NCBI GenBank assembly: GCA_050251055.1
Contig: JBFWNL010000016.1
Location: forward strand, 1 to 16,753
Origin: Bacteriovoracia bacterium
GTDB taxonomy: Bacteria; Bdellovibrionota; UBA1018; JBFWNL01
Length of the DNA stretch: 16,753 bases
Reading direction: 5' to 3'
The position numbers and the translations under genes were made by a program. The notes below the pieces were generated by a model. The model saw only the letters and a list, made by a program, of their open reading frames with translations. It did no database searches and was not told the DNA's origin. Positions 1,485 to 16,753 of the stretch are shown here, piece by piece (the stretch's first letter is position 1; each line of letters opens with the position of its first letter).

Positions 1485-1951
1485 TACTGGATCTCCAAAA
1501 ACCGGTCCCCCGGTGAAAGCTGTTGTCCTTCCGCCACCAAAACTTTCGTGACCTTGCCCGCACTGGGTGCCTTAATGGCAAACTCCATCTTCATCGCTTC
1601 CACGAGCAAAAGCGGCGTACCCTTCTCGACCGCGTCCCCCGCCTTCACTAAAAGCTTGCGCACCTTGCCTGGGAACTGCGCGACTAGGTCGGCATCACTA
1701 CCACCCGCATCCCGCCCCCCCGCGCTCGCCTCGACGATCTCGCCGGCGTGGGCCACTCCCCCCACCTGCGCCCAAAACTTCCCATTCACTTCGGTGGCGA
1801 GCAGACGTACGCGCACCACTGCGCCCCCCACGCCCGTGCGCGTGGCGATGATCCAAGGACCGGGACGCCGCTCGAACTTCCACGCGCCTTCGGACGCACC
1901 CGCCGAATTTAGAGCTTCCTTATTGGCCGAGGTTTTGAAGAAGCGACTCAT
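1484..1951 (-). CDS. Biotin carboxyl carrier protein (C-terminal part of split methylcrotonyl-CoA carboxylase alpha subunit)
   Basis: EAMKME biotinylation motif in a C-terminal biotinyl domain; ATGA overlap with the upstream gene and a GGAGG RBS. Confidence 0.92.
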   Translation of the reverse strand: MSRFFKTSANKEALNSAGASEGAWKFERRPGPWIIATRTGVGGAVVRVRLLATEVNGKFWAQVGGVAHAGEIVEASAGGRDAGGSDADLVAQFPGKVRKLLVKAGDAVEKGTPLLLVEAMKMEFAIKAPSAGKVTKVLVAEGQQLSPGDRFLEIQ

Positions 1952-3459: not shown

Positions 3460-4256
3460 TTACTCAGCCAGTTCGGTTTGCGTTTTTCCAAAAAAGCGCG
3501 CACGCCCTCCTGCCCCTCGGGGGAGATGCGAAGGTCGGCTAGGACCTTGGCGACGTATTCCAAAGGATCTTTCTTGCGGGCGCGGTACTCAGGCCACGTG
3601 AGATTGAGCACGAGCTTTTTCGCGGCGGCCATGGCTTCGGGGCCGCATTGCAGGATATTGCCGATCACCCGCTCGACGGCAGAGTCGAGTTCGCTGGCCG
3701 CGACCACGTCATGCACCAGGCCCACTTCACGAGCGCGCGCGGCAGAAAAACGCTCGGCACTCACGAAAAGCGCGCGGGCATGGGAAGCCCCGATCTTAGC
3801 AACCACAAACGGACCGATGCACGCGGGGATAATGCCCAAGCGGACTTCGCTCAAACTAAAAACCGCATCCGTCGCCGCGATCGCGATATCGCAAATGCTC
3901 ACTAGGCCCACGCCGCCGCCAATCGCCGCCCCTTGAACGACTCCAATCACCGGCTTGGGAAATTCGTTGAGCTGCGCGAACATCTGCGCGAGCGTGCGGG
4001 TGTCTTGGAGGTTTTCTTCGAAGGTGAAGTTTACGGAGTCCTGCATCCAGTTGAGGTCGCCCCCCGCGCAGAACACCGGCCCGTTGCCACGCAGAACTAC
4101 CGCGCGGACCCGGTCGTCCAGGCCTTCCTTTTCAAAGACGCGTGAAAGCTCTTTAATGACGACGGCGTTGAAAGCGTTGCGCACATCCGGACGATTCAAG
4201 GAAACCGTCAGCACGCCGCGCACATCGATGGTGGCTTGCAGGGTTTGGTAGGCCAT
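3456..4256 (-). CDS. liuC: Methylglutaconyl-CoA hydratase (crotonase family)
   Basis: Motifs [48 protein letters not shown] and [17 protein letters not shown]; liu context. Confidence 0.92.
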
Positions 4257-4292
4257 TTCCCTACTGGTTACCCCATTCGCCGGGAAAACAAA

Positions 4293-4315
4293 AGGTGCTT
4301 GAATTTCAAGTGCCT
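4293..4315. promoter_or_regulatory. Palindromic candidate operator in the divergent liuC/liuB intergenic region
   Basis: AGGTG-CTTGAA-T-TTCAAG-TGCCT with a perfect core at 4298-4310; overlaps a TTGAAT(4299)-N17-TACCAC promoter-like element for liuB. Confidence 0.5.
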
Positions 4316-4333
4316 GCCCGGTACCACAGGGTT

Positions 4334-5950
4334 ATGTCCGTACTCACTACCCAAGCCCAGCCACAAGGCGCCGAGTTCAAAGCGAACGCGAAGCATCATC
4401 AGAAGCTCGCCGCCGAGCTGGATGAGCGCTTGGGCCAGGTGCGCGGGGGCGGAGGCAAGGAAGCGCGCGATAAGCACGAGTCTCGCGGTAAGCTCTTTGT
4501 TCGCGATCGGATTCAGAAGCTGGTCGATCCGGGCACGGCCTTTCTGGAGCTGTCACCGCTCGCGGCCTGGAACATGTATAATGATGAAGCCCCGTCCGCT
4601 GGGGTCATTACCGGCATCGGCGTCGTCCACGGCCGCGAAGTCGTCATCGTGGCCAACGACGCGACCACGAAGGGGGGCACCTACTTCCCCCTCACCGTGA
4701 AGAAGCATGTTCGGGCCCAGGAAGTGGCGATGGAGAATCACCTCCCCTGCATTTACCTCGTGGATTCCGGCGGCGCCTACCTGCCCATGCAGGCGGATGT
4801 ATTCCCCGACCGCGACCATTTCGGGCGCATTTTCTATAATCAGGCCACCATGTCCGCGCGCGGGATCCCGCAGATCGCGGTTGTCATGGGTTCCTGCACG
4901 GCGGGCGGCGCCTACGTCCCCGCCATGTCCGACGAAACGATCATCGTACGCAAGCAGGGCACCATCTTCCTAGGCGGGCCTCCGTTGGTAAAAGCGGCCA
5001 CCGGTGAAGTCGTGACCGCCGAGGAACTAGGTGGCGGGGATGTGCACTGCCGCACTTCGGGCGTGACCGATCACTTGGCCGAGAACGACGAACACGCGCT
5101 GGAGATCGCGCGCGACATCGTCGCCAACCTCAATCGCGCGCGTCCCGCCGGCGAAACCGGCATGGACCGCCGCGTCCCCGAAGAACCCTTATTTGATGCC
5201 AGCGAACTCGCCGGCGTCGTCCCCGCCGATCTGCGCAAGCCGTTCGACATCCGCGAAGTCATCGCCCGGACCGTGGACGGCTCGCGCTTTCACGAGTTCA
5301 AGGCGCTCTACGGCACGACCCTCGTGTGCGGCTTCGCCCACATCTACGGCTATCCCGTGGGCATTATCGGCAATAACGGCATTCTTTTCAGTGAAAGTGC
5401 CCTGAAAGGTGCGCATTTCATCGAACTCTGCTGCCAGCGCAAGATCCCGCTCGTATTTCTGCAAAACATCACCGGCTTCATGGTCGGCAAGAAGTATGAA
5501 TCGGGGGGCATCGCCCGGGACGGGGCCAAGCTCGTGACCGCCGTCTCCAACGCCCAGGTCCCCAAGTTCACCGTCATCGTGGGCGGCAGCTACGGAGCGG
5601 GGAACTACGGCATGTGCGGACGTGCTTTCGGCCCGCGCTTCGTGTGGATGTGGCCCAACGCCCGTATCTCCGTCATGGGTGGCGAGCAAGCCGGCAGCGT
5701 GCTCGCGCAGGTGAAGGTCGAGCAGCTGGAGAAAAAGGGCCAAAAACTCAGCGAGGCCGACATCGCCAAGATTCGCGAGCCGATCATCGCCGAGTACGAA
5801 CGCGATGGAAATCCTTATAGCAGCACGGCGAGGCTCTGGGACGACGGCATCATTGCCCCCTGGAAAACACGCGAAACGCTCGCACTCGCGATCGCGGCGT
5901 CGCTCAATGCGCCCATCCCGGACACCCAGTTCGGCGTTTTCCGGATGTAG
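4334..5950 (+). CDS. liuB: Methylcrotonyl-CoA carboxylase beta (carboxyltransferase) subunit
   Basis: Motifs [53 protein letters not shown] and C-terminal FGVFRM. ATG 4334 (MSVLTT) preferred over GTG 4295. Confidence 0.96.
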
Positions 5951-6077
5951 GCGCTTCGGATTCGCTTCGCCGCGCTGAATTACTCGCGCATTTTTCATCT
6001 AAATTTGAGGCACGGATGGAGGGGAACGCCCTCGCGAAGGGAAAGAAAATGAAATGGGGGAGGTAAGCTACGAATGA

Positions 6078-6097
6078 CGCCGGCGAGGTCGCCGGCG
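6078..6097. other. GC-rich hairpin between convergent genes (possible terminator or stabiliser)
   Basis: CGCCGGCGA-GG-TCGCCGGCG perfect inverted repeat just after the stop of 6105..6683; no clear U-tract. Confidence 0.4.
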
Positions 6098-6104
6098 CGG
6101 CCGA

Positions 6105-6683
6105 CTACGAACGATCTATGTAGTTCAGGGAAAGCGAAGTTTTCGTGGCCTGCAGCCGCACATCCGTCACGCAATCGGTGCGCTGGTCGCCCGGCTTCCG
6201 CCGCGCCAGGCATACCGCCACGCCGCCCGGCTTAGCGAGTCCCTTGTTCTTCTTTTGTAGAAGCGCGGCGCTGATCAGCTCCTTCATACGATCAAAGTGC
6301 AGGAAAAAACCCGTGTGATTGAACTTCAGTTGCTTCAGCCGATCGGTCGCGCACTTGACCACGTCCGTGCAGGTCGGAGGCACGCCAACGTAAATCGTGC
6401 CGACGCGGTCGCCGCAGGCGTATTGCTCCAAGCGAATCGCCGTCCGGTCGGGTTGCGTAAGAGTTTCCACCACCTTTCGCGCCCGCCCGGAAGTTTGATT
6501 CAGCTTATAGGCGCCAGCACCATAGGCTTTGGCATCCAGCACCGGAGACGCTTCCGGATGAGCGCAGGGGCCCTTACCCAGCGGTCGCGGCCCCGCCTGT
6601 TTGGCCAGCACATCGGCCGCCTCCGACGTTCCCCGAGGGATAAACAACGCTAAACAAAGCAGGCTGCCGACAATTACTCGCAT
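6105..6683 (-). CDS. Hypothetical secreted protein, six Cys in the mature part
   Basis: Signal-peptide-like N-terminus (MRVIVGSLLCLALF...SEA); no family recognised. Confidence 0.75.
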   Translation of the reverse strand: MRVIVGSLLCLALFIPRGTSEAADVLAKQAGPRPLGKGPCAHPEASPVLDAKAYGAGAYKLNQTSGRARKVVETLTQPDRTAIRLEQYACGDRVGTIYVGVPPTCTDVVKCATDRLKQLKFNHTGFFLHFDRMKELISAALLQKKNKGLAKPGGVAVCLARRKPGDQRTDCVTDVRLQATKTSLSLNYIDRS

Positions 6684-6743
6684 GCCTCCATCATCAAAGC
6701 TCGCGCCGGGTGCGTCAATATCGTTTTTGAATAAAGTAAGAGA

Positions 6744-6968
6744 TCAGTTCAGGCTGACATCGAACGAGTTGAAGCTACCATCCGCTTTCACACCCCACTG
6801 CCAGCGAACGATCTGCCGACCATCCTGCAGGTCTTCGGGGCTAACGATCGTCCCCCATACCACTAGCAACACGCCTAAGAGGACCAGAAGGGGAAACGCC
6901 GTGGCGCGAAACCCCGCTTGGCTCCGACTCGAGACACGTCTGAACTTGGATTCGATTGAAGACTTCAT
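6744..6968 (-). CDS. Small single-pass membrane protein (about 74 aa) with prepilin-like N-terminus
   Basis: 3' part of ORF 6744..7109. The sigma54 motif at 7023-7038 argues for a start at ATG 6968 (or 6998). Basic leader, QAG|F, then hydrophobic FPLLVLLGVLLVVWG. Confidence 0.6.
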   Translation of the reverse strand: MKSSIESKFRRVSSRSQAGFRATAFPLLVLLGVLLVVWGTIVSPEDLQDGRQIVRWQWGVKADGSFNSFDVSLN

Positions 6969-7022
6969 CTGCTCACCCGCCCTCGCGTCGCCCTTCATTG
7001 GACAACGCACCCCACTCAGTGA

Positions 7023-7038
7023 AGCAACGGACGTGCCA
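7023..7038 (-). promoter_or_regulatory. sigma54 (-24/-12) promoter
   Basis: Minus strand reads TGGCACGTCCGTTGCT, a perfect TGGCAC-N5-TTGC match. Confidence 0.7.
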
Positions 7039-7078
7039 GGCGGAAATGCTTCCGTTGGCCCCAGGCGGCGGAGGAAGC

Positions 7079-7558
7079 TTAGCTCGGGGACGATTTTGTC
7101 CCCGACCATCGGCCACGCTTGACCAAGGCCCGCGCCAGAATTTCGAGCGCCATGCGATTACTTTCAAACTTCAGGCGGCTTTGGGCGACTTCGACCGTGA
7201 CCCATTCACAGTCAGTGTGCTCTCGTGGGTCCAGTCGGATCGGCGTGGACTCGCCCACTCCCGCGAGCGCAATTTCAAAGCACGTTTCTTCGGCCATTCC
7301 CGTGCGGCCGCCCCGCTCGGTACGAAACTGAAACTGAAACCCCAAAGCCCGAGGGGGCGGGAGCCCGATGACTCCAGTTTCCTCGGCGGCTTCGCGGGCG
7401 GCGGCCACTTCCAGGGTTTCACCCGACTCCACGCTACCGGTGACCGGCTGCCAAAATGCCCCACGCACCGGGTTCGTTTTCAAGAGTAAGACCTTGCCCG
7501 AACTATCGTGCACCCACACTTGGACTTTCTGTAAAAATGGCTTTTTTACATCGTTCAT
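7079..7558 (-). CDS. NUDIX hydrolase, NudB (dihydroneopterin triphosphate pyrophosphatase)-like
   Basis: FWQPVTGSVESGETLEVAAAREAAEETGV contains the Nudix box; the WQxVTG and EHxxxxW elements are typical of the NudB subfamily. Substrate not certain. Confidence 0.88.
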   Translation of the reverse strand: MNDVKKPFLQKVQVWVHDSSGKVLLLKTNPVRGAFWQPVTGSVESGETLEVAAAREAAEETGVIGLPPPRALGFQFQFRTERGGRTGMAEETCFEIALAGVGESTPIRLDPREHTDCEWVTVEVAQSRLKFESNRMALEILARALVKRGRWSGTKSSPS

Positions 7559-7631
7559 TTAATCCATTTATGATTTTTTATTAATAATTTCAATTGATTA
7601 AAAATCTGAGTATATTAGTTTTTCGAAAAAC

Positions 7632-7660
7632 TTGTGCGATCGAGGGGCGGGGTGTATACG
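7632..7660 (+). promoter_or_regulatory. Possible sigma70-type promoter downstream of an AT-rich tract
   Basis: TTGTGC-N17-TATACG preceded by the very AT-rich 7559-7631. Confidence 0.3.
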
Positions 7661-7715
7661 CATTGAGTCATTACTATCAAATGACCTGAATACTCTCGGG
7701 GCAAGGAGATTCACC

Positions 7716-8816
7716 ATGAAAGCAACGGCGATTTGCAGCGCGAGTCTGTTCGTTTTAGCGGTAGGGACCTCTTCCGCGCGAGCCTATGAGACCGATCAGT
7801 TTACCTTACCTAAGAAGCCGCTTCAGGACATCGGCTCCGACATCAGCGCCTATGTCTATGAGAGCCTCGAAGCCACGGTAAATGCCACCAACGATAAGAT
7901 CGATAAACTCAAAACACGCCTCGTCGAATTTGAAGCAAAGCACGTGGACCCAGCCATCATGGCGGACGTCCAAAAGCAAATCGAAGAGCTACGCTCGAAC
8001 CACCGGCTCGCCAACGAAGTCTATTCCGGAATCGACGGCGGCGTACTCCTTACTAACCGGGTGGAGGGTTGGGTAGGCGCCTTTGGCAAATTAGGAAAAA
8101 AGTACGGAAAAGATGCGACCCTGAAGTTTCGTCCGGGCATCTTTAATAACGTTTACGCCTGGGCCACCCACATTCGGGGGCCCATGTACGCTATCTTCTC
8201 ATCGACCATCAATCTTTACGGCGTCGAACTTGGCACCGACAAGCTTGGGCACTTCTTCAAGCAAGGCATCCAATATTACCGGCGCTTTACCCGCCAAGTT
8301 GAGAACGAGGTCGATCCAGCCGACGCTGAAAAAGGTTCGGTCGGCGGCGTGGGCAAGATTGCCGAAGGCTCTTACTTTGGCATGGGGCTCACCGGCGTAT
8401 ACTCCAACGCCGATCTGGCCACCAACCTCGCTGGCTTGAAGTTTTACCAAAACATCTTGGCTCCCCTCACGATTGGCGAGACCGCCTATCCGTCCATGCT
8501 TCGTGTGCGCGACGACGGTAAACTCGAAATCAATCCCGCCCCCGAAAACGCTAAAGAAACGGTGTATCGTCGCTTCGTTAGCGAGCACATGAATGAAGCC
8601 ATGAACCCCTCGTGGATCGAAGCGGGCCTCATGCGCTCGGGCGTGCGCAAGAACGTGAAGAAAAGATGTAAGGCTTGGAAAGCTAGATATCCGGAATTGA
8701 CCAAACAGATGGACGATGAACGGGTACGTCGGCTTTCGACCTGGTACGGGCAAGATTACGGGCACAAGGGTGAATTCGACAAACTCGTCAGCATTGGCAA
8801 CGTTTGCTTCGAATAA
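7716..8816 (+). CDS. Secreted hypothetical protein with DKxGH...E...DLxxNxxG motif (possible metal-dependent hydrolase)
   Basis: AAGGAG RBS at 7703-7708 before ATG 7716; signal peptide ending ARA|YETDQF; motifs GTDKLGHFF and TGVYSNADLATNLAG. Confidence 0.85.
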   Translation: MKATAICSASLFVLAVGTSSARAYETDQFTLPKKPLQDIGSDISAYVYESLEATVNATNDKIDKLKTRLVEFEAKHVDPAIMADVQKQIEELRSNHRLANEVYSGIDGGVLLTNRVEGWVGAFGKLGKKYGKDATLKFRPGIFNNVYAWATHIRGPMYAIFSSTINLYGVELGTDKLGHFFKQGIQYYRRFTRQVENEVDPADAEKGSVGGVGKIAEGSYFGMGLTGVYSNADLATNLAGLKFYQNILAPLTIGETAYPSMLRVRDDGKLEINPAPENAKETVYRRFVSEHMNEAMNPSWIEAGLMRSGVRKNVKKRCKAWKARYPELTKQMDDERVRRLSTWYGQDYGHKGEFDKLVSIGNVCFE

Positions 8817-8845
8817 CCTTTAGTTAATGACAGGAAGGGCTGCGA

Positions 8846-10798
8846 TTGTTCAGGTCCACCTCGATACTAGCGAAATTCGCTACGTCGGTTCATTTATACG
8901 TTAGCGCAAGCGTCCTCGGACTGCTTTTCGCCGCGTCCGCGCAGGCTGGCGGCGGGGCGCGGATCAAGGAGGCGACGCTTACCTTTCAAGTGAAAGACCG
9001 CGCGTTCGCGAGCTATACGAATTTCTACGACGAGGACATCACGACGCTCGAGTTTCTATTGGAGTACCGCTATCGCTCCATCTTCAACGGCCAAGCGTTG
9101 CCTTTCGATTCGACGCCGATCTCCAGCAAACACAAGCTCCCGTACTTCAAGACCGACCCGAAGGCCGACGACAGCTACGTGCTGGACGCCGTGCGCATCC
9201 TCGTACCGGCGCAGCCATTCTTAAACCCCACGCGCGAAGCTAAAGTTTATGAACTTTCACCCGACGATTTCTTGCAGCTCACGCGTAGCGTGCGCGTCGG
9301 CGCGGAAGACAAGCTCATCCTGGCCTTGACCCGCCTAGGTGACGAGCGCCGCCCCATGGCCTACTTCCAGGCGAAACAGGGCAAGCAGCGTTTCTTTGCC
9401 CAGGAGTCGGACGTCGTGGCGGAGGCGCCGTTCCACGTGACCTCCAATGAGCCGCACCAGATCCAGATCCTTGAGCACAGCGCCCACGCGCTAGCGGCCC
9501 GCCTGCGCCTACTGGAGTCCGCCGAGCAGAGTATCGAGCTGGAGACCTACATCATGGACCGCTCGCGTTCTGCGCGGCTGATTTACCAAATTCTCGCTCG
9601 CAAGGCGCGTGCTGGGGTAAAGGTCCGGCTGCTGCAAGATCGCGGCCCTCACAACTCCGATTACATCGATTCCTATCTCAGTTTGGCGCTCCAAGAAGCC
9701 GGCGTTGAATTCAAGGTTTACAACCCGTTTGCCGGCATGGACCCCCACCAAATCCGCAATCACCGCAAGTTGATCGCGGTTGATGGCCGCCGCGCCATCA
9801 TCGGGGGGCGAAATGTCGAGGACCGCTACTATTACGCAGGCGCGGATTTTAACTTCGCCGATCGGGATATCTGGATCGAGGGCCCCATCGTGGCCGGGAT
9901 GGTGGAAAGCTTCGATCGCTTCTGGCGTGATGAAGCCTCCCGTACGTGGGACGTAGCCCGGGAGCCGAGCCGGTGGGACTACGAAAACGGCGGTTACCAC
10001 GCCGACCTCAAGCAGTTCATGCGCCGACGCGAAGAGGCGCGCCAGCTCCTCACTGAAGACACCTTCGACTTCATGAAGCGCATGAGCCTGGGGTCGGTCG
10101 CGCCAAAGCAGGACGAAGAAGCCCCCCTCTTCACCGTGAATAAGCTAACTTTCGTCAGCGACCGCCCCGGAAATCGCTACCGCGGCCGCGTGGTCAGCCA
10201 TTACATGTTCGCTCGCATGCAGGCCGCGCAACGGGAAATCCTCGTGGAAAACCCTTATTTCATCCCGATGGACGACGCTCGCACGCTCTATAAAGAAATC
10301 CTGGCCAAACGCCCCGCCTTGAATTTCGTGGTCCTCACCAACAGCCGATATTCCGCCTCGCGAGGTCAGCTATTGGTCGCCAAGATCATGGAAGACGAGT
10401 CCGCCGGACTCGTTAAAAAAGGGTTGAAGATGTTCGGTTATGCCGGCCACCTAAACGAGCCCAACACCTGGGGAGGCGGCGTCGCGGAGCAGAAGCGGGC
10501 CGAGCTGCACGGCAAATCCATGGTTATCGACGGTCGGGATGTCATGATTGGCTCGGTCAACCTGGATCCCCGCTCGCTGAATTACAACTCCGAGCTAGCG
10601 CTATTCGTTGACGACGCACCCGAGTTTGCCGCCGAGGTCAAACGCTTGACCGAGCAACGAATCGCGGAGAGCTACGAAATCATGCCCAACGGGATGCCAA
10701 AAGTGGAAGGCATTGAGCCGCTCGATCACTCCGGCGGTGCGCACTTCGGCTCGAATTTAGGCTTCTTCTTCACGCTGCTGCTCCACGAACTCTTTTAA
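8846..10798 (+). CDS. Secreted phospholipase D / cardiolipin synthase (ClsC-like) family protein
   Basis: Two HKD motifs (HRKLIAVD...GGRN and HGKSMVID...GSVNLDPRS); signal peptide ending AQA; about 170 aa of extra N-terminal sequence. Confidence 0.9.
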   Translation: MFRSTSILAKFATSVHLYVSASVLGLLFAASAQAGGGARIKEATLTFQVKDRAFASYTNFYDEDITTLEFLLEYRYRSIFNGQALPFDSTPISSKHKLPYFKTDPKADDSYVLDAVRILVPAQPFLNPTREAKVYELSPDDFLQLTRSVRVGAEDKLILALTRLGDERRPMAYFQAKQGKQRFFAQESDVVAEAPFHVTSNEPHQIQILEHSAHALAARLRLLESAEQSIELETYIMDRSRSARLIYQILARKARAGVKVRLLQDRGPHNSDYIDSYLSLALQEAGVEFKVYNPFAGMDPHQIRNHRKLIAVDGRRAIIGGRNVEDRYYYAGADFNFADRDIWIEGPIVAGMVESFDRFWRDEASRTWDVAREPSRWDYENGGYHADLKQFMRRREEARQLLTEDTFDFMKRMSLGSVAPKQDEEAPLFTVNKLTFVSDRPGNRYRGRVVSHYMFARMQAAQREILVENPYFIPMDDARTLYKEILAKRPALNFVVLTNSRYSASRGQLLVAKIMEDESAGLVKKGLKMFGYAGHLNEPNTWGGGVAEQKRAELHGKSMVIDGRDVMIGSVNLDPRSLNYNSELALFVDDAPEFAAEVKRLTEQRIAESYEIMPNGMPKVEGIEPLDHSGGAHFGSNLGFFFTLLLHELF

Positions 10799-10812
10799 GG
10801 CCCGCGCCGCCG

Positions 10813-10828
10813 TGGCATTGAACTTGTA
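10813..10828 (+). promoter_or_regulatory. sigma54-like promoter upstream of the hpf-like gene
   Basis: TGGCATTGAACTTGTA (GG-N10-GT, one mismatch at -12). Confidence 0.45.
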
Positions 10829-10877
10829 GGCAATGACATTGGCACCGATTTCAAATGGATTTCGAATGGAGGCCCCC

Positions 10878-11207
10878 ATGTCTGATCGAATCAATTGCGA
10901 ACATTTCTCCCTGACCCCTTCTATTCGCGAGCACGTTTCAAAGCACATCGAGGATATCAAGGCCGTGCTGCCGGCGCACGCGGAGGTGGTGTCCTTCCTT
11001 TGCGAGAGCAACCCGCGCGTCTTTTCGGTGCTCTTTCGAGCCCACGTTTGGGGAAAGGACATTGTAGTAAAGAGCACCGGCGACGACCTCTATGCCGAGA
11101 TTACCCGGGCCAAACGCATTTTCGTGCAGCGCGCGCACGAGCTCAAAGAACAGCGCAAGCGACACCGGGAAAGCCGGCTCGCCTCGGGCCTGCGGCCACG
11201 CGCCTAG
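10878..11207 (+). CDS. hpf: HPF/RaiA family ribosome hibernation (sigma54 modulation / S30AE) protein
   Basis: GGAGG RBS at 10868-10872. INCEHFSLTPSIREHVSKHI...DIVVKSTGDDLYAEITRAKRIFVQR matches the HPF pattern (LTxxIRxxV, DLYxxI, basic last helix). Confidence 0.8.
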   Translation: MSDRINCEHFSLTPSIREHVSKHIEDIKAVLPAHAEVVSFLCESNPRVFSVLFRAHVWGKDIVVKSTGDDLYAEITRAKRIFVQRAHELKEQRKRHRESRLASGLRPRA

Positions 11208-11252
11208 AAAAAACGGGAGCCTAGCCAACGAACCGCTCGGCTAGACTCCCGT
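11208..11252 (-). terminator. Intrinsic terminator for the activator-Hpt operon (possibly bidirectional)
   Basis: Hairpin ACGGGAG-C-CTAGCC-N12-GGCTAG-A-CTCCCGT with A6 at 11208-11213 (U-tract on the minus strand), between convergent genes. Confidence 0.7.
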
Positions 11253-11287
11253 CTACGTTTATGGACTAGGTGGAGTTGGGGTATTAA

Positions 11288-11581
11288 CTACGGAAAATTC
11301 TTCTTCACGTAAGCCAGCATCTCGTCGAACTTGGCGTGGATGCCGCGAAGGCTCGATACTTTCACCTGCATGCGCAGCTCTTGGGCTAGCTGCCCGAGTT
11401 CCGCGTGACCAAACAGGCCGGCGTTACCGCTGATCTTGTGCCCAATGGTCTCCACGGCGTCGAAGTTCAAACCACGCACGGCCTCCTCAAGGTGGTGCAT
11501 GTAATCCATCAAGAGGGCGCGGTACTTCGCCTGCGTCTGCGGACTTGGCTGGTAATGAACCGTGCCCCCCCCTTGGACCAT
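11288..11581 (-). CDS. Stand-alone histidine phosphotransfer (Hpt) domain protein
   Basis: Predicted helical; VETIGHKISGNAGLFGHAELGQLAQELR fits the Hpt H-x-x-x-G-x-A-G motif; starts 3 nt after the activator stop. Confidence 0.82.
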   Translation of the reverse strand: MVQGGGTVHYQPSPQTQAKYRALLMDYMHHLEEAVRGLNFDAVETIGHKISGNAGLFGHAELGQLAQELRMQVKVSSLRGIHAKFDEMLAYVKKNFP

Positions 11582-11584
11582 GAC

Positions 11585-13159
11585 TTAGGCGTTGCCTCCC
11601 CCGCCGGCATCCTTCCCTTGCCCCATTTCAATGAGCCGGCGGTAAAGCGTGCGTCGGCTTAATCCCAACACCTTCGCCACGACCTCCTTGCGTCCCTTGT
11701 ATCGATCCAGCACGGAAGTGATGTAACGGCTTTCCACTTCCCGCAGCGACGGGAAGTCATAGGTCAGCTCGTCCATCATATCGTCCTGCGACTTATCGGT
11801 GGTGACCGGGATATCATACTCGTCGATGTACTCGCCCTGCGAGAGCACGACGCTACGCTCGACCACGTTCTGCAGCTCGCGAACGTTACCCTTGAACTGC
11901 ATGTGGATGAGTTTATTGAGCGCGGACAATCGGAAGCCCTTGAACTCCTTCCGGCAACTCAGCGAAAACTTGTCGAGGAAGTATTTCGCCAAGATCGGAA
12001 TGTCCTCGCGCCGCTGGCGAAGCGGCGGAATGTGAATCGGAATCACGTTCAAGCGGTAGTACAAGTCCTCGCGGAAATTTTGCTGCTTTATTTCGTTCAC
12101 TAGGTTCCGATGCGTGGCGCTGATAATGCGTACGTCGATCTGGCGGTACTTGTTATCGCCGACCGCGCGGATCTTGCGCTCTTGTACCGCACGCAGGATT
12201 TTCGCCTGCAGCGAGGTGTCCAAATCGCCGATCTCATCCAGAAAGAGCGTGCCGCCATTAGCCTCCTCAAAGAGACCCCGGCGCTCCTGCGTCGCCCCCG
12301 TGAAGGATCCCTTGGTGTGGCCGAAAAGTTCGCTTTCCAGGAGGGACTCCGGGATGGCCGAGCAGTTCACGCTCACGAACGGCTTATTCTCTCGACGGCT
12401 GTTGTCGTGGATAGCCCGAGCGACCACTTCCTTACCGACCCCGCTTTCGCCCGTGATGAGGACGCTCGAGTCCGTCGGCGCCACGCGCAAGAGCAGATCA
12501 TAGATCGCCTTCATAGCCGGGCTTTCGCAGAGCACGCCCTGCACCTTGAGCTTGCCCATGCCCTCTCCGCGAATGCTGCGATTCTCCTGCTGCAACCGTT
12601 TCAACCAAAGGGCGTTTCGGATGATCGAGTCGATGCGATCCAGCGTGAAGGGCTTTTCCACGTAGTCATAGGCGCCCTCTTTCATGCCCGCTACCGCATC
12701 CTGGACGTCGGAGTAAGCGGTCATGAGGACCACCGGGACGTCGGGGTAAAGCAAGTGAATGCGGCTGATCAGCTGCAAGCCGTCCACCTTAGGCATCTTC
12801 ACGTCGGAAAACACGAGGTCGTAGGGGAACGGGTTGGTAAGATGCGCCGCGGGCGCGTCCGGATGGGCGTTCGATACCTTACCCAAGAAAGCTTCCGAAT
12901 CCGCAAAGGTCTCGACGTCGTAGCCCTTTTGGGCGAAGAAGTCCGCCAGATAGATCAGCGTCGCCTCGTCGTCATCGACCACGGCGATTGAAATGTGCTC
13001 ATCGCTGTTCAAGCTGACCACCTTTAAATTGGGTTTCTGAAGCTTCTTGTCTTCTTCCGCGTCTTCCGAATTTGACGCATTTCGTTTAACTAATTCTTTG
13101 GAAGCCCCAGATGGAGGTAGCATTCCCTTTTTTTCCTTGTCAAACATTAGTTGTGCCAT
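11585..13159 (-). CDS. NtrC/AtoC-family sigma54-dependent response regulator (REC-AAA+-Fis HTH)
   Basis: REC (VVDDD, SDVKMP, KPF), Walker A GESGVGKE, ESELFGHTKGSFTGA, LFLDEIG, FREDLYYRLNV, GNVRELQN and HTH LGLSRRTLYRRL. Start uncertain because of a ~55 aa N-terminal extension. Confidence 0.96.
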   Translation of the reverse strand: MAQLMFDKEKKGMLPPSGASKELVKRNASNSEDAEEDKKLQKPNLKVVSLNSDEHISIAVVDDDEATLIYLADFFAQKGYDVETFADSEAFLGKVSNAHPDAPAAHLTNPFPYDLVFSDVKMPKVDGLQLISRIHLLYPDVPVVLMTAYSDVQDAVAGMKEGAYDYVEKPFTLDRIDSIIRNALWLKRLQQENRSIRGEGMGKLKVQGVLCESPAMKAIYDLLLRVAPTDSSVLITGESGVGKEVVARAIHDNSRRENKPFVSVNCSAIPESLLESELFGHTKGSFTGATQERRGLFEEANGGTLFLDEIGDLDTSLQAKILRAVQERKIRAVGDNKYRQIDVRIISATHRNLVNEIKQQNFREDLYYRLNVIPIHIPPLRQRREDIPILAKYFLDKFSLSCRKEFKGFRLSALNKLIHMQFKGNVRELQNVVERSVVLSQGEYIDEYDIPVTTDKSQDDMMDELTYDFPSLREVESRYITSVLDRYKGRKEVVAKVLGLSRRTLYRRLIEMGQGKDAGGGGNA

Positions 13160-13176
13160 AGTGTGTCTAACACTTA

Positions 13177-13192
13177 AGCAACATGCGTGCCC
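13177..13192 (-). promoter_or_regulatory. sigma54 promoter of the activator-Hpt operon
   Basis: Minus strand reads GGGCACGCATGTTGCT (GG-N10-GC). Confidence 0.65.
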
Positions 13193-13278
13193 TTATCTCA
13201 TTTTCTGCTGTCATGGCTAACTTTGGGGCGAGGCCTCTTTTGCTGCAGGGAGTTGAGTGCATTATACAACTATGAAAA

Positions 13279-13295
13279 TGTGCCAAATTGGCACA
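13279..13295. promoter_or_regulatory. Palindromic enhancer (UAS) candidate between divergent sigma54 promoters
   Basis: Perfect TGTGCCAA-A-TTGGCACA; weaker copy GCCGAATTGGC at 13328-13338. Confidence 0.7.
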
Positions 13296-13363
13296 CTAAT
13301 GGGCGCTTTTTGTATAAGAGACCGTCCGCCGAATTGGCGCGCTCATTTTAACTCAAAACCACA

Positions 13364-13379
13364 CGGCACTTGAATTGCA
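13364..13379 (+). promoter_or_regulatory. sigma54 promoter of the receiver gene
   Basis: CGGCACTTGAATTGCA (GG-N10-GC). Confidence 0.65.
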
Positions 13380-13490
13380 AATATTGGACTCACGTGGGGC
13401 GCGACGACTCAAGGAATCTTGAAAGTCGACGCGAGTCATTCTATTGAAGCTTCTCCACGGAAATCGTGACTGGATAGGAAGGCTCTTGAT

Positions 13491-13913
13491 TTGAAAACGC
13501 AATCCACAAATGCATCGGTCGCCGCAACGGCCACCGCCAACAAGCGCATCCTCCTCGTCGAAGATGACGAGGCCATCCAAATGTCCCTTCGCGAGTTCTT
13601 CGAGCAGGAACAGTATGACGTTCATTGCGAATCCAACGGTCAAGCCGCTTTAAATTATCTACGCAGCCTCGGCGCCGAAAACTATCCCGATCTAGTGTTA
13701 CTCGATCTCTTCATGCCGGTAATGGACGGAGCCGAGTTTTTCTCGGAATTCAAAAAAAATTCCCAATGGCTCCATAACATCCCGGTCGTTGTCATGTCCG
13801 CGGCGGACGAAGTGACGATGAAAGGCATCCGAAATCGCATGCAGGCGCTCTCCGGCATCATTAAGAAGCCATTCGACTTCGAACAACTGATGAGCATCGT
13901 CAACGGATACTAA
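13491..13913 (+). CDS. Single-domain response regulator (CheY-like receiver)
   Basis: RILLVEDD, DLVLLDLFMPVMDG, VVVMSA and KKPF; TTG start after AGGAAGG. Confidence 0.93.
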   Translation: MKTQSTNASVAATATANKRILLVEDDEAIQMSLREFFEQEQYDVHCESNGQAALNYLRSLGAENYPDLVLLDLFMPVMDGAEFFSEFKKNSQWLHNIPVVVMSAADEVTMKGIRNRMQALSGIIKKPFDFEQLMSIVNGY

Positions 13914-13987
13914 GCCACCGCTGGCACGACCGGCGACCGTTTTGTCCCAGCGACTGCCTCATCCTTCACTTTATCCCGTCGCTCCGC

Positions 13988-14003
13988 TGGAACACCCCTT
14001 GCT
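13988..14003 (+). promoter_or_regulatory. sigma54 promoter of the three-gene small-protein operon
   Basis: TGGAACACCCCTTGCT (GG-N10-GC). Confidence 0.62.
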
Positions 14004-14053
14004 ACTTGATATTATTTACCACTGGTTAACCCATCTCTAGGAGGAGGTTGGAT

Positions 14054-14260
14054 ATGCAGATGATAAACGCCAAGGCAGGCGGGGTAGACGAAACGGAAAA
14101 ATCCCGTCCCCCACGTGTAAGGAAATGCAATATTTGCGAGCAGAATTTCCACCCCCGCAGTCGGTTCGAGTGTTTTTGCCAAGACTGCCGCGAGAATAGC
14201 GAACTGCTCAGATTCGCGGACTGGCTACCCGAAGCCGACGACCTGCCAAAAGCCGCTTAG
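14054..14260 (+). CDS. Small putative Zn-finger protein (CxxC...CxxC)
   Basis: AGGAGGAGG RBS at 14039-14047 before ATG 14054; RKCNICEQNFHPRSRFECFCQDCR. Confidence 0.78.
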   Translation: MQMINAKAGGVDETEKSRPPRVRKCNICEQNFHPRSRFECFCQDCRENSELLRFADWLPEADDLPKAA

Positions 14261-14291
14261 GCCATCTTCTAAATTAAAACAAAGGAATCCA

Positions 14292-14720
14292 ATGGGAGCG
14301 ATGATGATGAAGATCCTTAACTTGTTTCAACCTTTAGTGTCGCGAAGAAAAGGAAGTCCTCGTTTCACGGGTAAAATTCACGTGGAAACCGTGGAAATCT
14401 CCGATTACTCCGGATTCAAGCGCGTGATCAAAAATTTCGCCGAAGAACTGTGGCGTGCCAGGACGCTTGCCGAAACCACGACCCGACTCACCTACGAATT
14501 GACTTTCGCCAAGCACCCGATCATCGACGATTGCGTTCAGTGCGATATCCGAATGCAAACCGACGGCGGCCACGCGCTTTGGGTCGCGCGCGCGTTGGGC
14601 AAGGACGCGGAGATGGCGTTCCTGCGCGGACTCACCTCCCTGCGCCAAAACCTGCTGATGTTCGCCCAAGGAAAAAACACTAGTCAGGAGGCCGACTATG
14701 GGTTTGCCCAAGCCGCTTGA
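14292..14720 (+). CDS. Hypothetical protein, possibly divergent HPF-like fold
   Basis: AAGGA RBS; beta-alpha-beta-beta-beta-alpha pattern by eye, ending VARALGKDAEMAFLRGLTSLRQNL. Confidence 0.75.
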   Translation: MGAMMMKILNLFQPLVSRRKGSPRFTGKIHVETVEISDYSGFKRVIKNFAEELWRARTLAETTTRLTYELTFAKHPIIDDCVQCDIRMQTDGGHALWVARALGKDAEMAFLRGLTSLRQNLLMFAQGKNTSQEADYGFAQAA

Positions 14721-14994
14721 GCCAAATCTCGAGCAAGTGCCCGATCCGGTCGACGACGTACTGGAGAACATGACCGACTGGATCAAATTCAAGCGAGACG
14801 TGCTCTTTTTACCGAGCCATCACGATTTTTCGGCCGAGGTAACTTACGACGAAGCTACGAAGCGTTACTATAGCCGGGTCATCGTCGCGATCGGCGACGG
14901 GCACGTTTGGCGCGGTCACGGTGAAGGTGCCACCGAGGCCCAGGCCACACAGGAAGCGCTTTTTTCCGCCCGCTGCATCTATCGCAACAGCTGA
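14698..14994 (+). CDS. Hypothetical protein, possibly dsRBD/HPF-like fold
   Basis: AGGAGG RBS at 14686-14691; 23-nt overlap with the previous gene; RYYSRVIVAIGDGHVWRGHGEGATEAQATQEAL resembles the dsRBD GxG-helix region. Confidence 0.72.
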   Translation: MGLPKPLEPNLEQVPDPVDDVLENMTDWIKFKRDVLFLPSHHDFSAEVTYDEATKRYYSRVIVAIGDGHVWRGHGEGATEAQATQEALFSARCIYRNS

Positions 14995-15180
14995 AGGCCC
15001 GACGACCGATTGTTAAAGAAGCTTGAATTGACAATCGCGAACGCTTCACCGAGAAAGTCCGCGTTCTTAATTAATCTCCTGGCCCAGCGATTGCCCGCCA
15101 CCCGCGTTTACCAGGAAAAAAATGGACAGCTATGCAAAACCCGAGAACGCTCGGCCGCTCGCAAAAAACCGCAGGCAGGT

Positions 15181-15239
15181 TGTGCCAAATTTTCCAACCC
15201 TTGAGCCAAACTGGCACAAACATCCGGCAAATGTGGACG
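15181..15239. promoter_or_regulatory. Phased copies of the UAS motif upstream of the kinase promoter
   Basis: TGTGCCAAATTTTCCAA (15181, 13/17), TGAGCCAAACTGGCACA (15202, 15/17) and weak TCCGGCAAATGTGGACG (15223, 10/17), scored against the 13279 palindrome; 21-bp spacing. Confidence 0.6.
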
Positions 15240-15275
15240 AGGATAAACCTGATCGTTCCCCTGAAGCATTTTTTT

Positions 15276-15291
15276 TGGCGCGATAGTTGCT
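15276..15291 (+). promoter_or_regulatory. sigma54 promoter of the poly-HAMP kinase gene
   Basis: TGGCGCGATAGTTGCT (GG-N10-GC). Confidence 0.68.
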
Positions 15292-15375
15292 TGGGCGACA
15301 CCTATACAAAAAAAATTTGCTCACCCAGCTTGAACTTCTTGGACCGAAGATCTGCATTTTAAAGAAGGAACCCAC

Positions 15376-16753
15376 GTGAAAGCATCCACCCCGTCTCGCG
15401 CAAGCAAAAAAAATCCGCCGCGTCCTGCTCCGCCCGAGCTTTCACCCACTGCCCCCAGCCTCAAGACGCCAGCCACTTCGGCCACCGCGAAGGACCGCGT
15501 CATTGGCGGGCTCGTCGCTCCATTGAACTCTAATGTAACCCCGACCGAGCAACTCCGAATGCTGCTCAAGGTCGTAAAGGGCGTACGGGATGGGAATTTC
15601 ACCGTGCGCATGCAGGTGGCCAGTGAAGGGATTATCAGCGAAATCGGCGAGGTGATGAACGATATCATCGAGCTAAATGAAAATATGGCGAACGAGTTCA
15701 TCCGCGTTCGCAAGACCATTGGCCAGGAAGGCCGAATGAATGAACGTCTCACCATGGGCTTCATCAAGGGCTCCTGGGCGACGAGCGTGAATTCCGTCAA
15801 CGCCCTCATCGGCGACCTGGTGCAACCCACCACCGAAGCCGCGCGCGTGATTACGGCGGTAGCCAAGGGCGATCTTTCGCAGCAGATGGTCATGGAGATC
15901 GACGGCCGTCCCCTGATGGGTGAGTTCGCGCGCATCGGCAAAACAGTGAACTCCATGGTGGACCAGCTCAACTCGTTCGCCGCCGAAGTGACCCGCGTCG
16001 CCAAGGAAGTCGGCACCGAGGGAAAATTGGGCGGGCAAGCGAACGTGAAGGGCGTGTCGGGGATTTGGAAAGACCTCACCGACAACGTGAACGGCCTGGC
16101 GGCTAACTTGACGGATCAGGTGCGAAACATCGCGAAGGTCACCACCGCTGTGGCGAAGGGCGACTTATCCCAAAAAATTACCGTGGATGCCAAGGGCGAG
16201 ATTTACGAACTGAAGACCACCATCAACGTCATGGTGGATCAGCTCAACTCGTTCGCCGCCGAAGTGACCCGCGTCGCCAAAGAAGTCGGTACCGAAGGAA
16301 AGCTGGGCGGTCAAGCCGACGTGAAGGGCGTCAGCGGTACTTGGAAAGACCTCACCGATAACGTGAACGGCCTGGCGGGTAACCTCACCGCCCAGGTGCG
16401 AAACATCGCTAAAGTCACCACCGCCGTCGCCAACGGCGACCTCTCCCAAAAAATCACCGTCGACGCCAAGGGCGAAATCTACGAGCTCAAGAACACGATT
16501 AACGTCATGGTGGATCAGCTACGCTCCTTCGCCTCCGAAGTGACCCGCGTCGCCAAGGAAGTCGGCACCGAAGGAAAGCTGGGCGGACAAGCCGACGTGA
16601 AGGGCGTCAGCGGTACTTGGAAAGACCTCACCGATAACGTGAACGGCCTGGCGGGTAACCTCACCGCCCAGGTGCGAAACATCGCAAAAGTGACGACCGC
16701 CGTCGCCAACGGCGACCTCTCCCAAAAAATCACCGTCGACGCCAAGGGTGAAA
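15376..16753 (+). CDS. Poly-HAMP domain protein, probable cytoplasmic hybrid histidine kinase (NIK1/Os-1/OsaA-like), truncated by window end
   Basis: Not in the ORF track; GTG 15376 after AAGGA, open to the end. Pro-rich N-terminus, then 92-aa repeats [82 protein letters not shown]. Kinase domains are not visible. Confidence 0.9.
15955..16753 (+). repeat. 276-bp intragenic tandem repeat (about 3 copies visible)
   Basis: ATGGTGGA(C/T)CAGCT recurs at 15955, 16231 and 16507. Confidence 0.95.

Follow-up and report, generated by a model that had tools for sequence, protein, structure and literature searches.

The window analysed here is the whole contig JBFWNL010000016.1 (C16; 16,753 nucleotides) of a Bacteriovoracia bacterium, one of the 21 contigs of a 3.77-Mb genome (G000) with a completeness of 93.5%. 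From position 10800 onward, each gene in this contig encodes either a signalling protein or one of four small proteins, as revealed by Pfam searches and by the reading of open reading frames (ORFs). The balance of the evidence tips slightly towards the view that this island is a sigma-54-dependent phosphorelay composed of two modules with HPF-fold proteins as outputs, and that it constitutes a real, conserved system is solid. The first module would include a soluble poly-HAMP-GAF-HisKA-HATPase-REC kinase followed directly by a REC-PAS-HisKA-HATPase kinase, and the second one an NtrC-type activator with a downstream Hpt protein, a lone receiver and an output set, which would consist of a zinc-ribbon-like protein, the translationally coupled proteins A and B and the basic HPF-family protein D. 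An initial annotation of this DNA, made from its letters alone, had listed an HPF protein, two HPF/dsRBD-like proteins (A and B) and a Zn-finger protein as the only non-signalling genes, and this content was found to be correct from position 10800 onward.

The promoter-like sites are the first line of evidence. Sigma-54 promoters follow the consensus TGGCACG-N4-TTGCW, with the GG and GC doublets located 10 bases apart, and -24/-12 sites were scored on this basis with simple weights of our own (maximum 15). In the complete 3.77-Mb genome, 95 sites scored 13.5 or more, and 4 of these 95 best sites were found within the 852 intergenic bases between positions 13160 and 15375, each facing the next gene, where 0.021 sites were expected (Poisson p ~9e-9). 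They are located before the activator-Hpt operon (GGGCACGCATGTTGCT, 13177..13192, minus strand, score 14.0), the lone receiver gene (CGGCACTTGAATTGCA, 13364..13379, plus strand, score 13.5), the zinc-finger/A/B operon (TGGAACACCCCTTGCT, 13988..14003, plus strand, score 13.5) and the poly-HAMP kinase gene (TGGCGCGATAGTTGCT, 15276..15291, plus strand, score 14.0). The initial annotation had proposed a -24/-12 motif ahead of five transcription units, and the fifth one, TGGCAT-N5-TTGTA before the HPF gene (10813..10828, plus strand), is weak, with a score of 11.5; it has not been counted as a sigma-54 site because a score of this level is reached roughly every 750 bases. Sigma-70-like sites were at chance level (2 found versus 2.2 expected), as were intrinsic-terminator-like sites. 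The gene for the sigma factor itself, rpoN, is present in the genome (PF04552, 219.5 bits, C10:43613-44092).

Three of the four strong promoters are preceded, 67-96 bases upstream, by the palindrome TGCCAAAyTGGCA. Such a distance from the -24 element is typical of activator sites. The copy TGCCAAATTGGCA (13281..13293) lies between the divergent activator and receiver promoters, with its centre 78 bases from the -24 element of the receiver promoter and 96 bases from that of the activator promoter. This 13-mer has its sole exact copy in the genome at 13281, and it is a candidate for an activator binding site common to the two divergent promoters. A second, weaker copy, CGCCGAATTGGCG (13327..13339), has two mismatches and the same half-site spacing; it belongs to the repeat family D1, together with the copies at 13282 and 15205, and shows 79% identity along the 19-nt unit of that family. 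Ahead of the kinase gene, a TGCCAAA half-site (15184) and the palindrome AGCCAAACTGGCA (15204) together span 15184..15216 with their centres 20 bases apart, and the centre of AGCCAAACTGGCA is 67 bases upstream of the -24 element of the kinase promoter. In the whole genome there are 201 palindrome sites with up to two mismatches and 9 with up to one. Among the copies with 0-1 mismatch, only those of C16 are located 30-250 bases upstream of a strong site, which scores 14.0 in both cases, the first copy facing in addition the site of score 13.5 at 13364. On C3, a further copy with two mismatches lies ahead of a 13.5 site, and one C13 site matches the TGCCAAAnTGGCA pattern with no mismatch and has no promoter near it. 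A further sigma-54-like site (15080-15095, plus strand, score 13.0) was observed ahead of the palindromes, at a distance of 190 bases from the kinase promoter, with no ORF behind it; it could be due to chance or belong to a short transcript, and Rfam gave no match there.

The activator (524 residues; 11585..13159, minus strand) contains a receiver domain (PF00072, 90.3 bits), the sigma-54 interaction AAA+ domain (PF00158, Sigma54_activat, 243.7 bits), the AAA lid (PF25601, AAA_lid, 77.5 bits) and a Fis-type helix-turn-helix (PF02954, HTH_8, 42.8 bits), and the presence of REC, sigma-54 AAA+ and Fis-type HTH in one protein places it in the NtrC class. Its translation includes the GAFTGA-type sigma-54 contact loop as GSFTGA, as well as the Walker A and Walker B motifs as GESGVGKE and LFLDEIG, respectively. 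The protein is 53-59% identical to the cluster activators of five other genomes (G003, G004, G005, G035 and G109), and its nearest paralogue in its own genome, where about 10 NtrC-like paralogues exist, is 49% identical; the cluster activators of G006 (38%) and G034 (43%) are not closer to it than this paralogue. With the LuxO equivalog model NF041946 it scored 357.8 bits against a cut-off of 800, so that it does not belong to that group; the AtoC, NtrC and ZraR models outscored NF041946, all of them under their own cut-offs, and NCBIfam gave no match above cut-off for any protein of the island. The stand-alone Hpt phosphotransfer protein (97 residues; 11288..11581, minus strand; PF01627, 27.1 bits versus a cut-off of 24.6) is encoded by a gene that starts 3 bases past the activator stop codon. 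It shows the H-K-x-x-G-x-x-G motif as GHKISGNAG, with CHRV-GSA as the equivalent in relatives, and a search of its own genome with its sequence retrieved only the Hpt protein itself. The lone receiver is a single-domain response regulator of 140 residues (13491..13913, plus strand; PF00072, 79 bits). The presence of an Hpt protein, a lone receiver and a sigma-54 activator, as initially annotated, is thus borne out by Pfam.

The poly-HAMP gene (15376..16753, plus strand) is open at its 3' end in C16, where it encodes the N-terminal 459 residues of the protein, and goes on at C11:1-3726. The last 127 bases of C16 (16627-16753) are identical to the first 127 bases of C11 (C11:1-127), with the reading frame kept, and no other contig of the genome matches the C16 end. 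On C11 the frame stays open for 1241 codons, encoding 7 more HAMP stretches followed by GAF, HisKA, HATPase_c and REC domains. The protein is therefore a kinase, and the earlier concern that it might have no kinase domain is answered by this in-frame overlap. There are 4 HAMP and 4 HAMP_2 stretches on C16 and 7 and 5, respectively, on C11. The kinase has at least 1658 residues and at least 9 di-HAMP units of 92 residues marked by WKDLT, both values being minima because the assembly break falls within near-identical 276-base HAMP repeats and the real repeat number may exceed the assembled one. No hydrophobic segment was found in the N-terminal part, where the top mean Kyte-Doolittle hydropathy of a 19-residue stretch was 0.82, in agreement with the soluble sensor initially described. 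Partial Pfam echoes of SpoIIID and HTH_6 appear over the HAMP domains. The REC-PAS-HisKA-HATPase kinase gene (C11:3710-5359) overlaps the stop codon of the poly-HAMP kinase gene.

An orthologue in G035 consists of one uninterrupted frame of 1855 residues with 12 HAMP and 12 HAMP_2 stretches and the same domain order, and it is 80% identical over the C-terminal 1235 residues. The C-terminal 1241 residues of the kinase are 77-84% identical to near-full-length orthologues (more than 800 aligned residues) from other families of the class. It was also observed that the kinase orthologues (G005, G034, G035, G082 and G124) show this 77-84% identity versus 38-59% for the syntenic activators, which points to an unusually strong conservation of the kinase or to a recent exchange. 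A long, tight di-HAMP array lacking a transmembrane segment, followed by GAF, HisKA, the catalytic domain and REC, characterizes the poly-HAMP family, and all these features were found. By this architecture, as it is described in PMC13446029 and PMC7643160, the protein is classed as a 'kinase poly-HAMP' of the AskA/AskB type. The kinase occurs in 24 of 127 genomes of the class, nearly always adjoined by the REC-PAS kinase.

Concerning the small proteins, the HPF/RaiA-family protein D (109 residues, isoelectric point (pI) 9.8; 10878..11207, plus strand) exceeds the PF02482 cut-off by a narrow margin (27.5 versus 23.7 bits, model positions 3-86 of 88) and is the only PF02482 match in the genome. 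It matches the last gene product of the small-gene operon of relatives (blastp, E 5e-8), and the profile of its family matches HI0257 of H. influenzae (1IMU) over the full length with an E value of 0.0016. In this genome rpoN (497 residues; L007, C10:42113-45592) is not followed by hpf, the next gene being on the opposite strand, and in G003-G006 an hpf gene of 98-118 residues is located directly after rpoN. The small Cys-rich protein (68 residues; 14054..14260, plus strand), referred to here as zinc-finger or zinc-ribbon-like, has five Cys residues (C-x2-C ... C-x-C-x2-C) and an S-x-L-x-RF-x-W-L/I-P tail that are invariant in the alignment; no Pfam or NCBIfam family was matched, and an Atlas search yielded unnamed clusters only. 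The homologues of the small proteins come from metagenome-assembled genomes labelled Bacteriovoracia or Bdellovibrionota.

The A protein (142 residues, 112 from the start of the gene caller; 14292..14720, plus strand) has 59 homologues, none of them with a Pfam domain and one named RaiA in a JGI record. Its AlphaFold2 model (pLDDT 78.6, pTM 0.71) displays a beta-alpha-beta-beta-beta-alpha order, and in a Foldseek search of the PDB the ranks 1-36 were all HPF, YfiA, pY or RafH proteins (E 6.4e-5 to 4e-3, probability 1.00), with target-normalised TM scores of up to 0.71. As modelled, A has the HPF/YfiA fold and represents a new sequence family; no PF02482 match was obtained at E values up to 1 with the A proteins of three relatives, and a comparison of the A profile with PDB sequences gave nothing useful. 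A search of the whole library with the A profile produced 47 matches at E up to 0.001, of which 10 (93-169 residues) were judged real; the long matches were dropped, as one 30-residue stretch was matched repeatedly and the two that were scanned were TPR and beta-propeller repeat proteins. The B gene (98 residues; 14698..14994, plus strand) starts inside A with a 23-base overlap, behind AGGAGG, and A and B are adjacent and overlapping wherever both occur. Neither B itself nor any of its 74 homologues has a Pfam domain. The B model (pLDDT 82.5) shows an alpha-beta-beta-beta-alpha order, its structural matches being tied between HPF/RafH/pY, dsRBD and the N-domain of uS5 (Z 5.5-7.3, best Foldseek E 4.4e-3), which is consistent with a fold class that binds RNA or ribosomes. 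The initial description of two HPF/dsRBD-like proteins is supported at the level of the models for A, with its HPF/YfiA fold, and B may have a dsRBD/HPF-like fold; neither protein is related to HPF by sequence. The predicted A-B complex reached an ipSAE of 0.73, the best of three controls reaching 0.00; this mark, which applies only roughly to predictions made with our own alignments, was attained by most of the solved complexes (116 of 157) and by very few mismatched pairs (2 of 215). The model runs agree in at least 63% of the contacts with a partner pLDDT of at least 59, and in the predicted interface the invariant W97-x-A-R-A strand of A pairs with the first strand of B. The prediction supports, and does not show, that A and B bind each other.

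The context was read in 10 genomes carrying an A- or B-like gene (G000, G003-G006, G034, G035, G085, G109 and G422), which represent five families of this class plus, in the case of G422, another family of the phylum. The synteny counts are based on the loci obtained in genome searches and hold for the genomes searched. In single protein and profile searches A was found in 4 of 127 class genomes; in a sample of 401 genomes of the phylum A was present in 9 at E up to 0.01, strongly in 4 of them, and B in 7. A search for related loci with the A alignment confirmed one genome locus and two metagenome loci, a low number because the divergent protein of the window was used for confirmation. In the four genomes of family f13 (G003-G006) the genes for REC, activator, Hpt, zinc finger, A, B, C and D follow each other on one strand, G004 having no zinc-finger gene and G003 showing no D-like match in the locus read and a PF02482 gene before REC. 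This gene of G003 encodes a protein of 142 residues (41 bits; L035, G003:C3, 11221-11649, minus strand) and lies directly upstream of the lone-receiver gene of the cluster, so that in G003 the HPF-fold genes of the cluster come in addition to two PF02482 genes, this one and the canonical hpf next to rpoN. A tblastn search for the C family of the relatives gave no match in the genome of the window.

In the other families, G035 (f5) has a REC gene on the opposite strand, then activator, Hpt, two REC genes, zinc finger and B, and the REC-PAS kinase together with the 1855-residue poly-HAMP kinase. In G034 (f4) the activator is divergent from REC, an A-like gene, a gene of no assigned function and a HisKA-HATPase-REC-Hpt kinase. 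Two genomes belong to f10: G109, with REC on the opposite strand, activator, an Hpt-REC fusion, REC, zinc finger, B and a C-like gene, and G085, with zinc finger, an A-like gene and B, and no activator on its 13.8-kb contig. In G422 (f22), the zinc finger and three small proteins lacking Pfam domains are encoded beside two CheB-CheR-PAS kinases; one of the three is a weak match to the A profile (E 4.9e-4) and the others are A-like by eye. At this G422 locus (L032, G422:C49, 3788-12214) the small genes are placed behind one perfect and one 14.0 sigma-54 site, and the two large CheB-CheR-PAS-kinase fusions take the place of the NtrC/Hpt pair. Overall, the activator is within 5 kb of the small genes in 8 of the 10 genomes, with Hpt directly downstream of it in 7 of those 8, and the zinc-finger gene belongs to 8 of the 10 clusters.

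The sigma-54 sites are also maintained. The orthologous activator gene is preceded by sites scoring 13.5-14.0 in G003, G004, G005 and G006, and the zinc-finger gene by equivalent sites in G005 (14.0), G003 (14.0), G035 (13.0) and G422 (15.0). A site of 13 or more before the small-gene operon, or before an activator operon running into it, was found in 8 of the 10 genomes, with perfect 15.0 sites in G422 and G109; G034 and G085 show no such site scoring 13 or more at the small-gene locus. The zinc-finger/A/B genes are regarded as the output because the sigma-54 site before their operon is kept in four other genomes, and their dependence on sigma-54 and on the activator is considered quite probable. 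The conservation of the cluster, proposed as a check in the initial annotation, thus holds for the activator, Hpt, receiver and small genes, which occur together in other families of Bdellovibrionota, but not for the poly-HAMP kinase, which is inside the cluster only in G000 and G035 (2 of 10), in G035 together with the REC-PAS kinase. The kinase is present in 6 of the 8 cluster-bearing class genomes versus 18 of the 119 other class genomes, a tally in which related genomes are not independent and the two cluster genomes without the kinase (G004 and G109) are 75-76% complete. The poly-HAMP kinase is a separable module, as it is linked in only 2 of the 10 genomes and also occurs in those 18 others, which are outside the set in which small-gene clusters were read.

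On this basis the following sequence of events may be proposed. A cytoplasmic cue would act on the GAF domain or on the HAMP rod, and the kinase would then phosphorylate its own His and subsequently its own Asp. The phosphate would pass to the His of Hpt and from there to the Asp of the activator, which would bind the TGCCAAAyTGGCA sites and open the sigma-54 promoters of its own operon, the lone receiver gene, the kinase operon and the zinc-finger/A/B operon, giving rise to a self-reinforcing circuit. The sigma-54 sites and the palindrome that the activator-Hpt, receiver and kinase promoters have in common indeed point to positive autoregulation, and these elements fit the self-amplifying switch that was initially suggested. 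The lone receiver and the second kinase could serve as a sink or as a second input. The targets of the outputs would be ribosomes or RNA, with A and B working together in a heterodimer and D in the manner of an HPF-type factor, and the outputs would be expected to damp translation in a non-growing stage of the predatory life cycle. The cluster suggests in this sense a signal-controlled brake on protein synthesis. That the kinase feeds the activator through Hpt in this organism is given an even chance or slightly better, and the silencing of ribosomes by the outputs, like the translational shutdown or dormancy initially suggested, is put forward only tentatively, as a rather doubtful step. The most far-reaching formulation would be that some Bdellovibrionota possess a signal-gated translation brake in which a sigma-54 relay, fed in some lineages by AskB/AskC-like kinases, switches zinc-ribbon and HPF-fold paralogues, that the A-B heterodimer binds ribosomes in a manner unlike known hibernation factors, that the set replaces here the rpoN-linked hpf and that it marks the switch between the growing and non-growing phases of the predatory cycle; taken as a whole, this is speculative and improbable.

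Several findings weigh against the two-module phosphorelay with HPF-fold outputs. At the promoters, the site before the HPF gene, at 11.5 out of 15, reads GT for the -12 GC (TTGT for TTGC). The palindrome initially described as shared stands before the activator, receiver and kinase promoters, but the canonical form is absent before the zinc-finger/A/B operon and the HPF gene; the output operon has only a GCCA-N4-TGGC variant with one extra spacer base (13914-13926), which overlaps a terminator-like hairpin with a T-rich tail after the receiver gene (13914..13935, plus strand). In the promoter regions of the relatives no clear equivalent of the palindrome was seen by eye, only loosely similar TGCC/GGCA repeats. 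As for the proteins, the A of the window is the most divergent member of its family (21-31% identity) and shows no Pfam match at E up to 0.01; none of 8 short remote A homologues matches PF02482, and hhalign comparisons of A with the D family and with B were not significant (probabilities 1.2% and 0.7%, respectively). The Z values of B, of up to 7.3, are in a range where only a common arrangement may be shared, and the B of the window is short (98 residues versus 111-159 in near-full-length homologues) and acidic (pI 5.0 versus 9.6-10.1 in relatives). As the A-B heterodimer would be roughly double HPF in size, its binding site could differ from that of HPF. With a genome completeness of 93.5%, a second hpf could be unassembled.

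These properties of the small proteins leave room for a relay that is real but whose small proteins are not hibernation factors, being instead dsRBD-like RNA-binding regulators or modulators of the activator, of sigma-54 or of the relay with an HPF-like alpha/beta fold, a possibility that deserves serious consideration even if it is not the expected one. No similarity of A, B or C to PF02482 was detectable at the sequence level, the matches of B to dsRBDs and uS5 are equal to those to HPF, and the heterodimer is predicted to form through the most conserved strand of A; classical short HPF/YfiA proteins are not known to form such heterodimers. Furthermore, G003-G006 keep a canonical hpf by rpoN besides the cluster, and consequently the cluster proteins are not simply the housekeeping factor. 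Nevertheless, all 36 best structural matches of A are ribosome-bound HPF-type factors, D is over the PF02482 cut-off and is the only such gene product in the genome, A, D and the B proteins of relatives are basic (pI 8.1-10.6), and in G003 another PF02482 gene is directly beside the cluster.

A second group of adverse findings concerns the link between the kinase and the activator. In four genomes (G003, G005, G006 and G034) the genes of the kinase pair lie apart from the activator module, on another contig or far off in the first three, and in G082, G077, G124 and G097 the pair has no activator, Hpt or small gene nearby; in all, six kinase loci were read that lack these genes. Because the kinase pair is often unlinked from the activator module, another kinase could feed Hpt. 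Two independent systems could then lie side by side, the kinase pair signalling elsewhere and the Hpt-activator pair being fed by a different hybrid kinase, for which the CHASE3 hybrid kinase at C11:12776-15820 or a kinase like the HisKA-HATPase-REC-Hpt protein of the G034 cluster would be candidates. The kinase pair is self-contained, highly conserved across families of the class over its C-terminal 1241 residues and usually found without the other genes among the 24 genomes that carry it, and the cluster of G034 itself encodes a hybrid kinase that carries an Hpt domain at its C-terminus. On the other hand, in this genome a rare palindrome is common to the kinase, activator and receiver promoters, the cluster of G035, which belongs to a different family, again contains the kinase pair, and the kinase is present in most of the cluster-bearing class genomes and in a small part of the others. 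Such a juxtaposition of two systems is possible but rather unlikely.

It has also been considered that the HPF-fold proteins could be weapons, made on a prey-contact signal and delivered to silence the ribosomes of the prey. The labels of the relatives indicate a predatory lineage and the families were restricted to Bdellovibrionota in the searches run, but the proteins are small, cytoplasmic-looking and translationally coupled, and no signal peptide or secretion gene was seen in the cluster by reading the translations, no dedicated predictor having been run; this idea is very improbable. Finally, a chance neighbourhood of two-component genes and small ORFs with meaningless promoter-like strings, conceivable in a genome with abundant two-component genes and about 10 NtrC-like paralogues and with a home-made promoter scoring scheme, is hardly credible given the Poisson p of the four sites, the gene order kept across five class families with small-gene clusters also in G422 of another family, and the open frames and invariant residues maintained in 59 and 74 small-protein homologues, the synteny already contradicting it.

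The remaining features of the window are the following. Between the convergent HPF and Hpt genes there is an inverted repeat (11213..11252) with 14-nt arms, 93% complementary, and a 12-nt loop, which is probably a two-way terminator. In the region 10700-15450, Rfam gave no RNA family at E up to 1. Positions 1-10798 contain ordinary genes: a leucine-catabolism set, a NUDIX protein, ORFs lacking an assigned function and a PLD-like protein. The leucine-catabolism set (3-5950) encodes an HMG-CoA lyase-like protein, biotin carrier, biotin carboxylase, enoyl-CoA hydratase and carboxyltransferase, with an adjoining acyltransferase. A perfect-consensus sigma-54 site, TGGCACGTCCGTTGCT (7023-7038, minus strand, score 15), is one of only three in the genome and is followed by an ORF of about 75 residues with one hydrophobic segment (6744-6968, minus strand) and an ORF of 192 residues (6105-6683, minus strand), neither with a Pfam or NCBIfam match. 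The G+C content drops to 0.50-0.54 (about 0.60 elsewhere) over 7500-8800, a stretch covering an ORF of 394 residues with no family match, right after which a PLD-family protein of 650 residues with a hydrophobic N-terminus is encoded (8846-10798).

Descriptions of ribosome hibernation factors usually concern single proteins that are induced by stress. The HPF-fold proteins of the island are grouped with a zinc-ribbon partner in a small operon of several paralogues, with a sigma-54 activator and an Hpt relay dedicated to it. If they act on ribosomes, this would be a rare case of translation capacity set by a specific sensory pathway, and it would offer a way to study how obligate predators keep their ribosomes idle between prey. 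The logic of the signalling holds no surprise, and the output biology is testable. Families that lack a Pfam model, namely A, B and the zinc-finger protein here and C in the relatives, can now be defined. The island also offers testable partners for AskA/B-type poly-HAMP kinases, whose downstream wiring in Myxococcus remains unclear.

When compared with known systems, the outputs resemble HPF, YfiA (RaiA) and pY in that D is over the PF02482 cut-off and A is modelled with the same beta-alpha-beta-beta-beta-alpha fold. A gene for HPF is typically next to rpoN, and the sigma-54 link takes another form here, the genes being located behind sigma-54 promoters. The outputs differ from HPF in the predicted A-B heterodimer, in the undetectable PF02482 similarity of A, B and C and in the grouping of several paralogous families in one operon with a zinc-ribbon-like protein. 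Among the matches listed in the literature on Bdellovibrio hibernation, on sigma-54 in the attack phase and on HPF with enhancer-binding proteins, no such cluster was found; an activator-Hpt pair conserved with a zinc-ribbon-like protein and several HPF-fold families lacking Pfam models, the predicted A-B heterodimer and the loss of the rpoN-linked hpf in this genome were not described in the literature found.

Fungal group III hybrid kinases (NIK1/Os-1/Hik1) signal through Ypd1, and NIK1/Os-1 had been the comparison chosen in the initial annotation. As in the island, the kinase is a soluble hybrid protein in which HAMP domains are repeated and which signals via an Hpt protein (PMC7643160 and the reference list of PMC13446029), whereas the bacterial arrays are longer and include GAF, as described in PMC7643160 and PMC13446029. 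The downstream partner in the island would be a sigma-54 activator and not a MAP-kinase cascade. That comparison has been replaced by closer bacterial analogues, LuxU/LuxO for the Hpt-activator pair and AskA/AskB/AskC for the kinases.

In luxO-luxU the Hpt gene directly follows the activator gene. In Vibrio the hybrid kinases LuxN, LuxQ and CqsS signal through the Hpt protein LuxU to LuxO with sigma-54 (PMC5394107), LuxQ/LuxU/LuxO being the textbook case of a sigma-54 activator fed by a hybrid kinase via Hpt, and the island has the same combination of a hybrid kinase, a stand-alone Hpt and an NtrC-type sigma-54 activator. Unlike the Vibrio system, the activator of the island is not a LuxO equivalog, its kinase is soluble with a poly-HAMP/GAF input instead of being a membrane receptor for autoinducers, sigma-54 sites are found at the relay genes themselves, and the visible outputs are protein genes, with no Qrr-like or other Rfam RNA in 10700-15450.

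The poly-HAMP/GAF/kinase/REC family includes AskA, fragments of which have been crystallised (PMC13446029). In Myxococcus xanthus, AskA is MXAN_0712, AskB is MXAN_6735 and AskC is MXAN_6734, and PMC7643160 reports that askC, which encodes a further hybrid kinase, is immediately downstream of askB, that the Ask kinases govern development and chemically induced sporulation and that partial SpoIIID and HTH_6 Pfam echoes lie over their HAMP domains. The island differs in that its kinase has one REC, the Ask proteins being described with several. Reported targets or partners of the Ask kinases are MrpC and FruA, and Hpt is not mentioned in PMC7643160; nothing there corresponds to the control by sigma-54, the link between Hpt and activator or the HPF-fold outputs, and the likeness is set by descriptions of architecture. 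The same SpoIIID and HTH_6 echoes over the HAMP domains and the same position of a second kinase, here REC-PAS, immediately downstream are shared with AskB/AskC as presented in that paper (PMC7643160). The signalling parts of the island are therefore of known kinds: an NtrC-class activator, an Hpt protein and, by architecture, an AskA/B-type kinase with an AskC-like partner.

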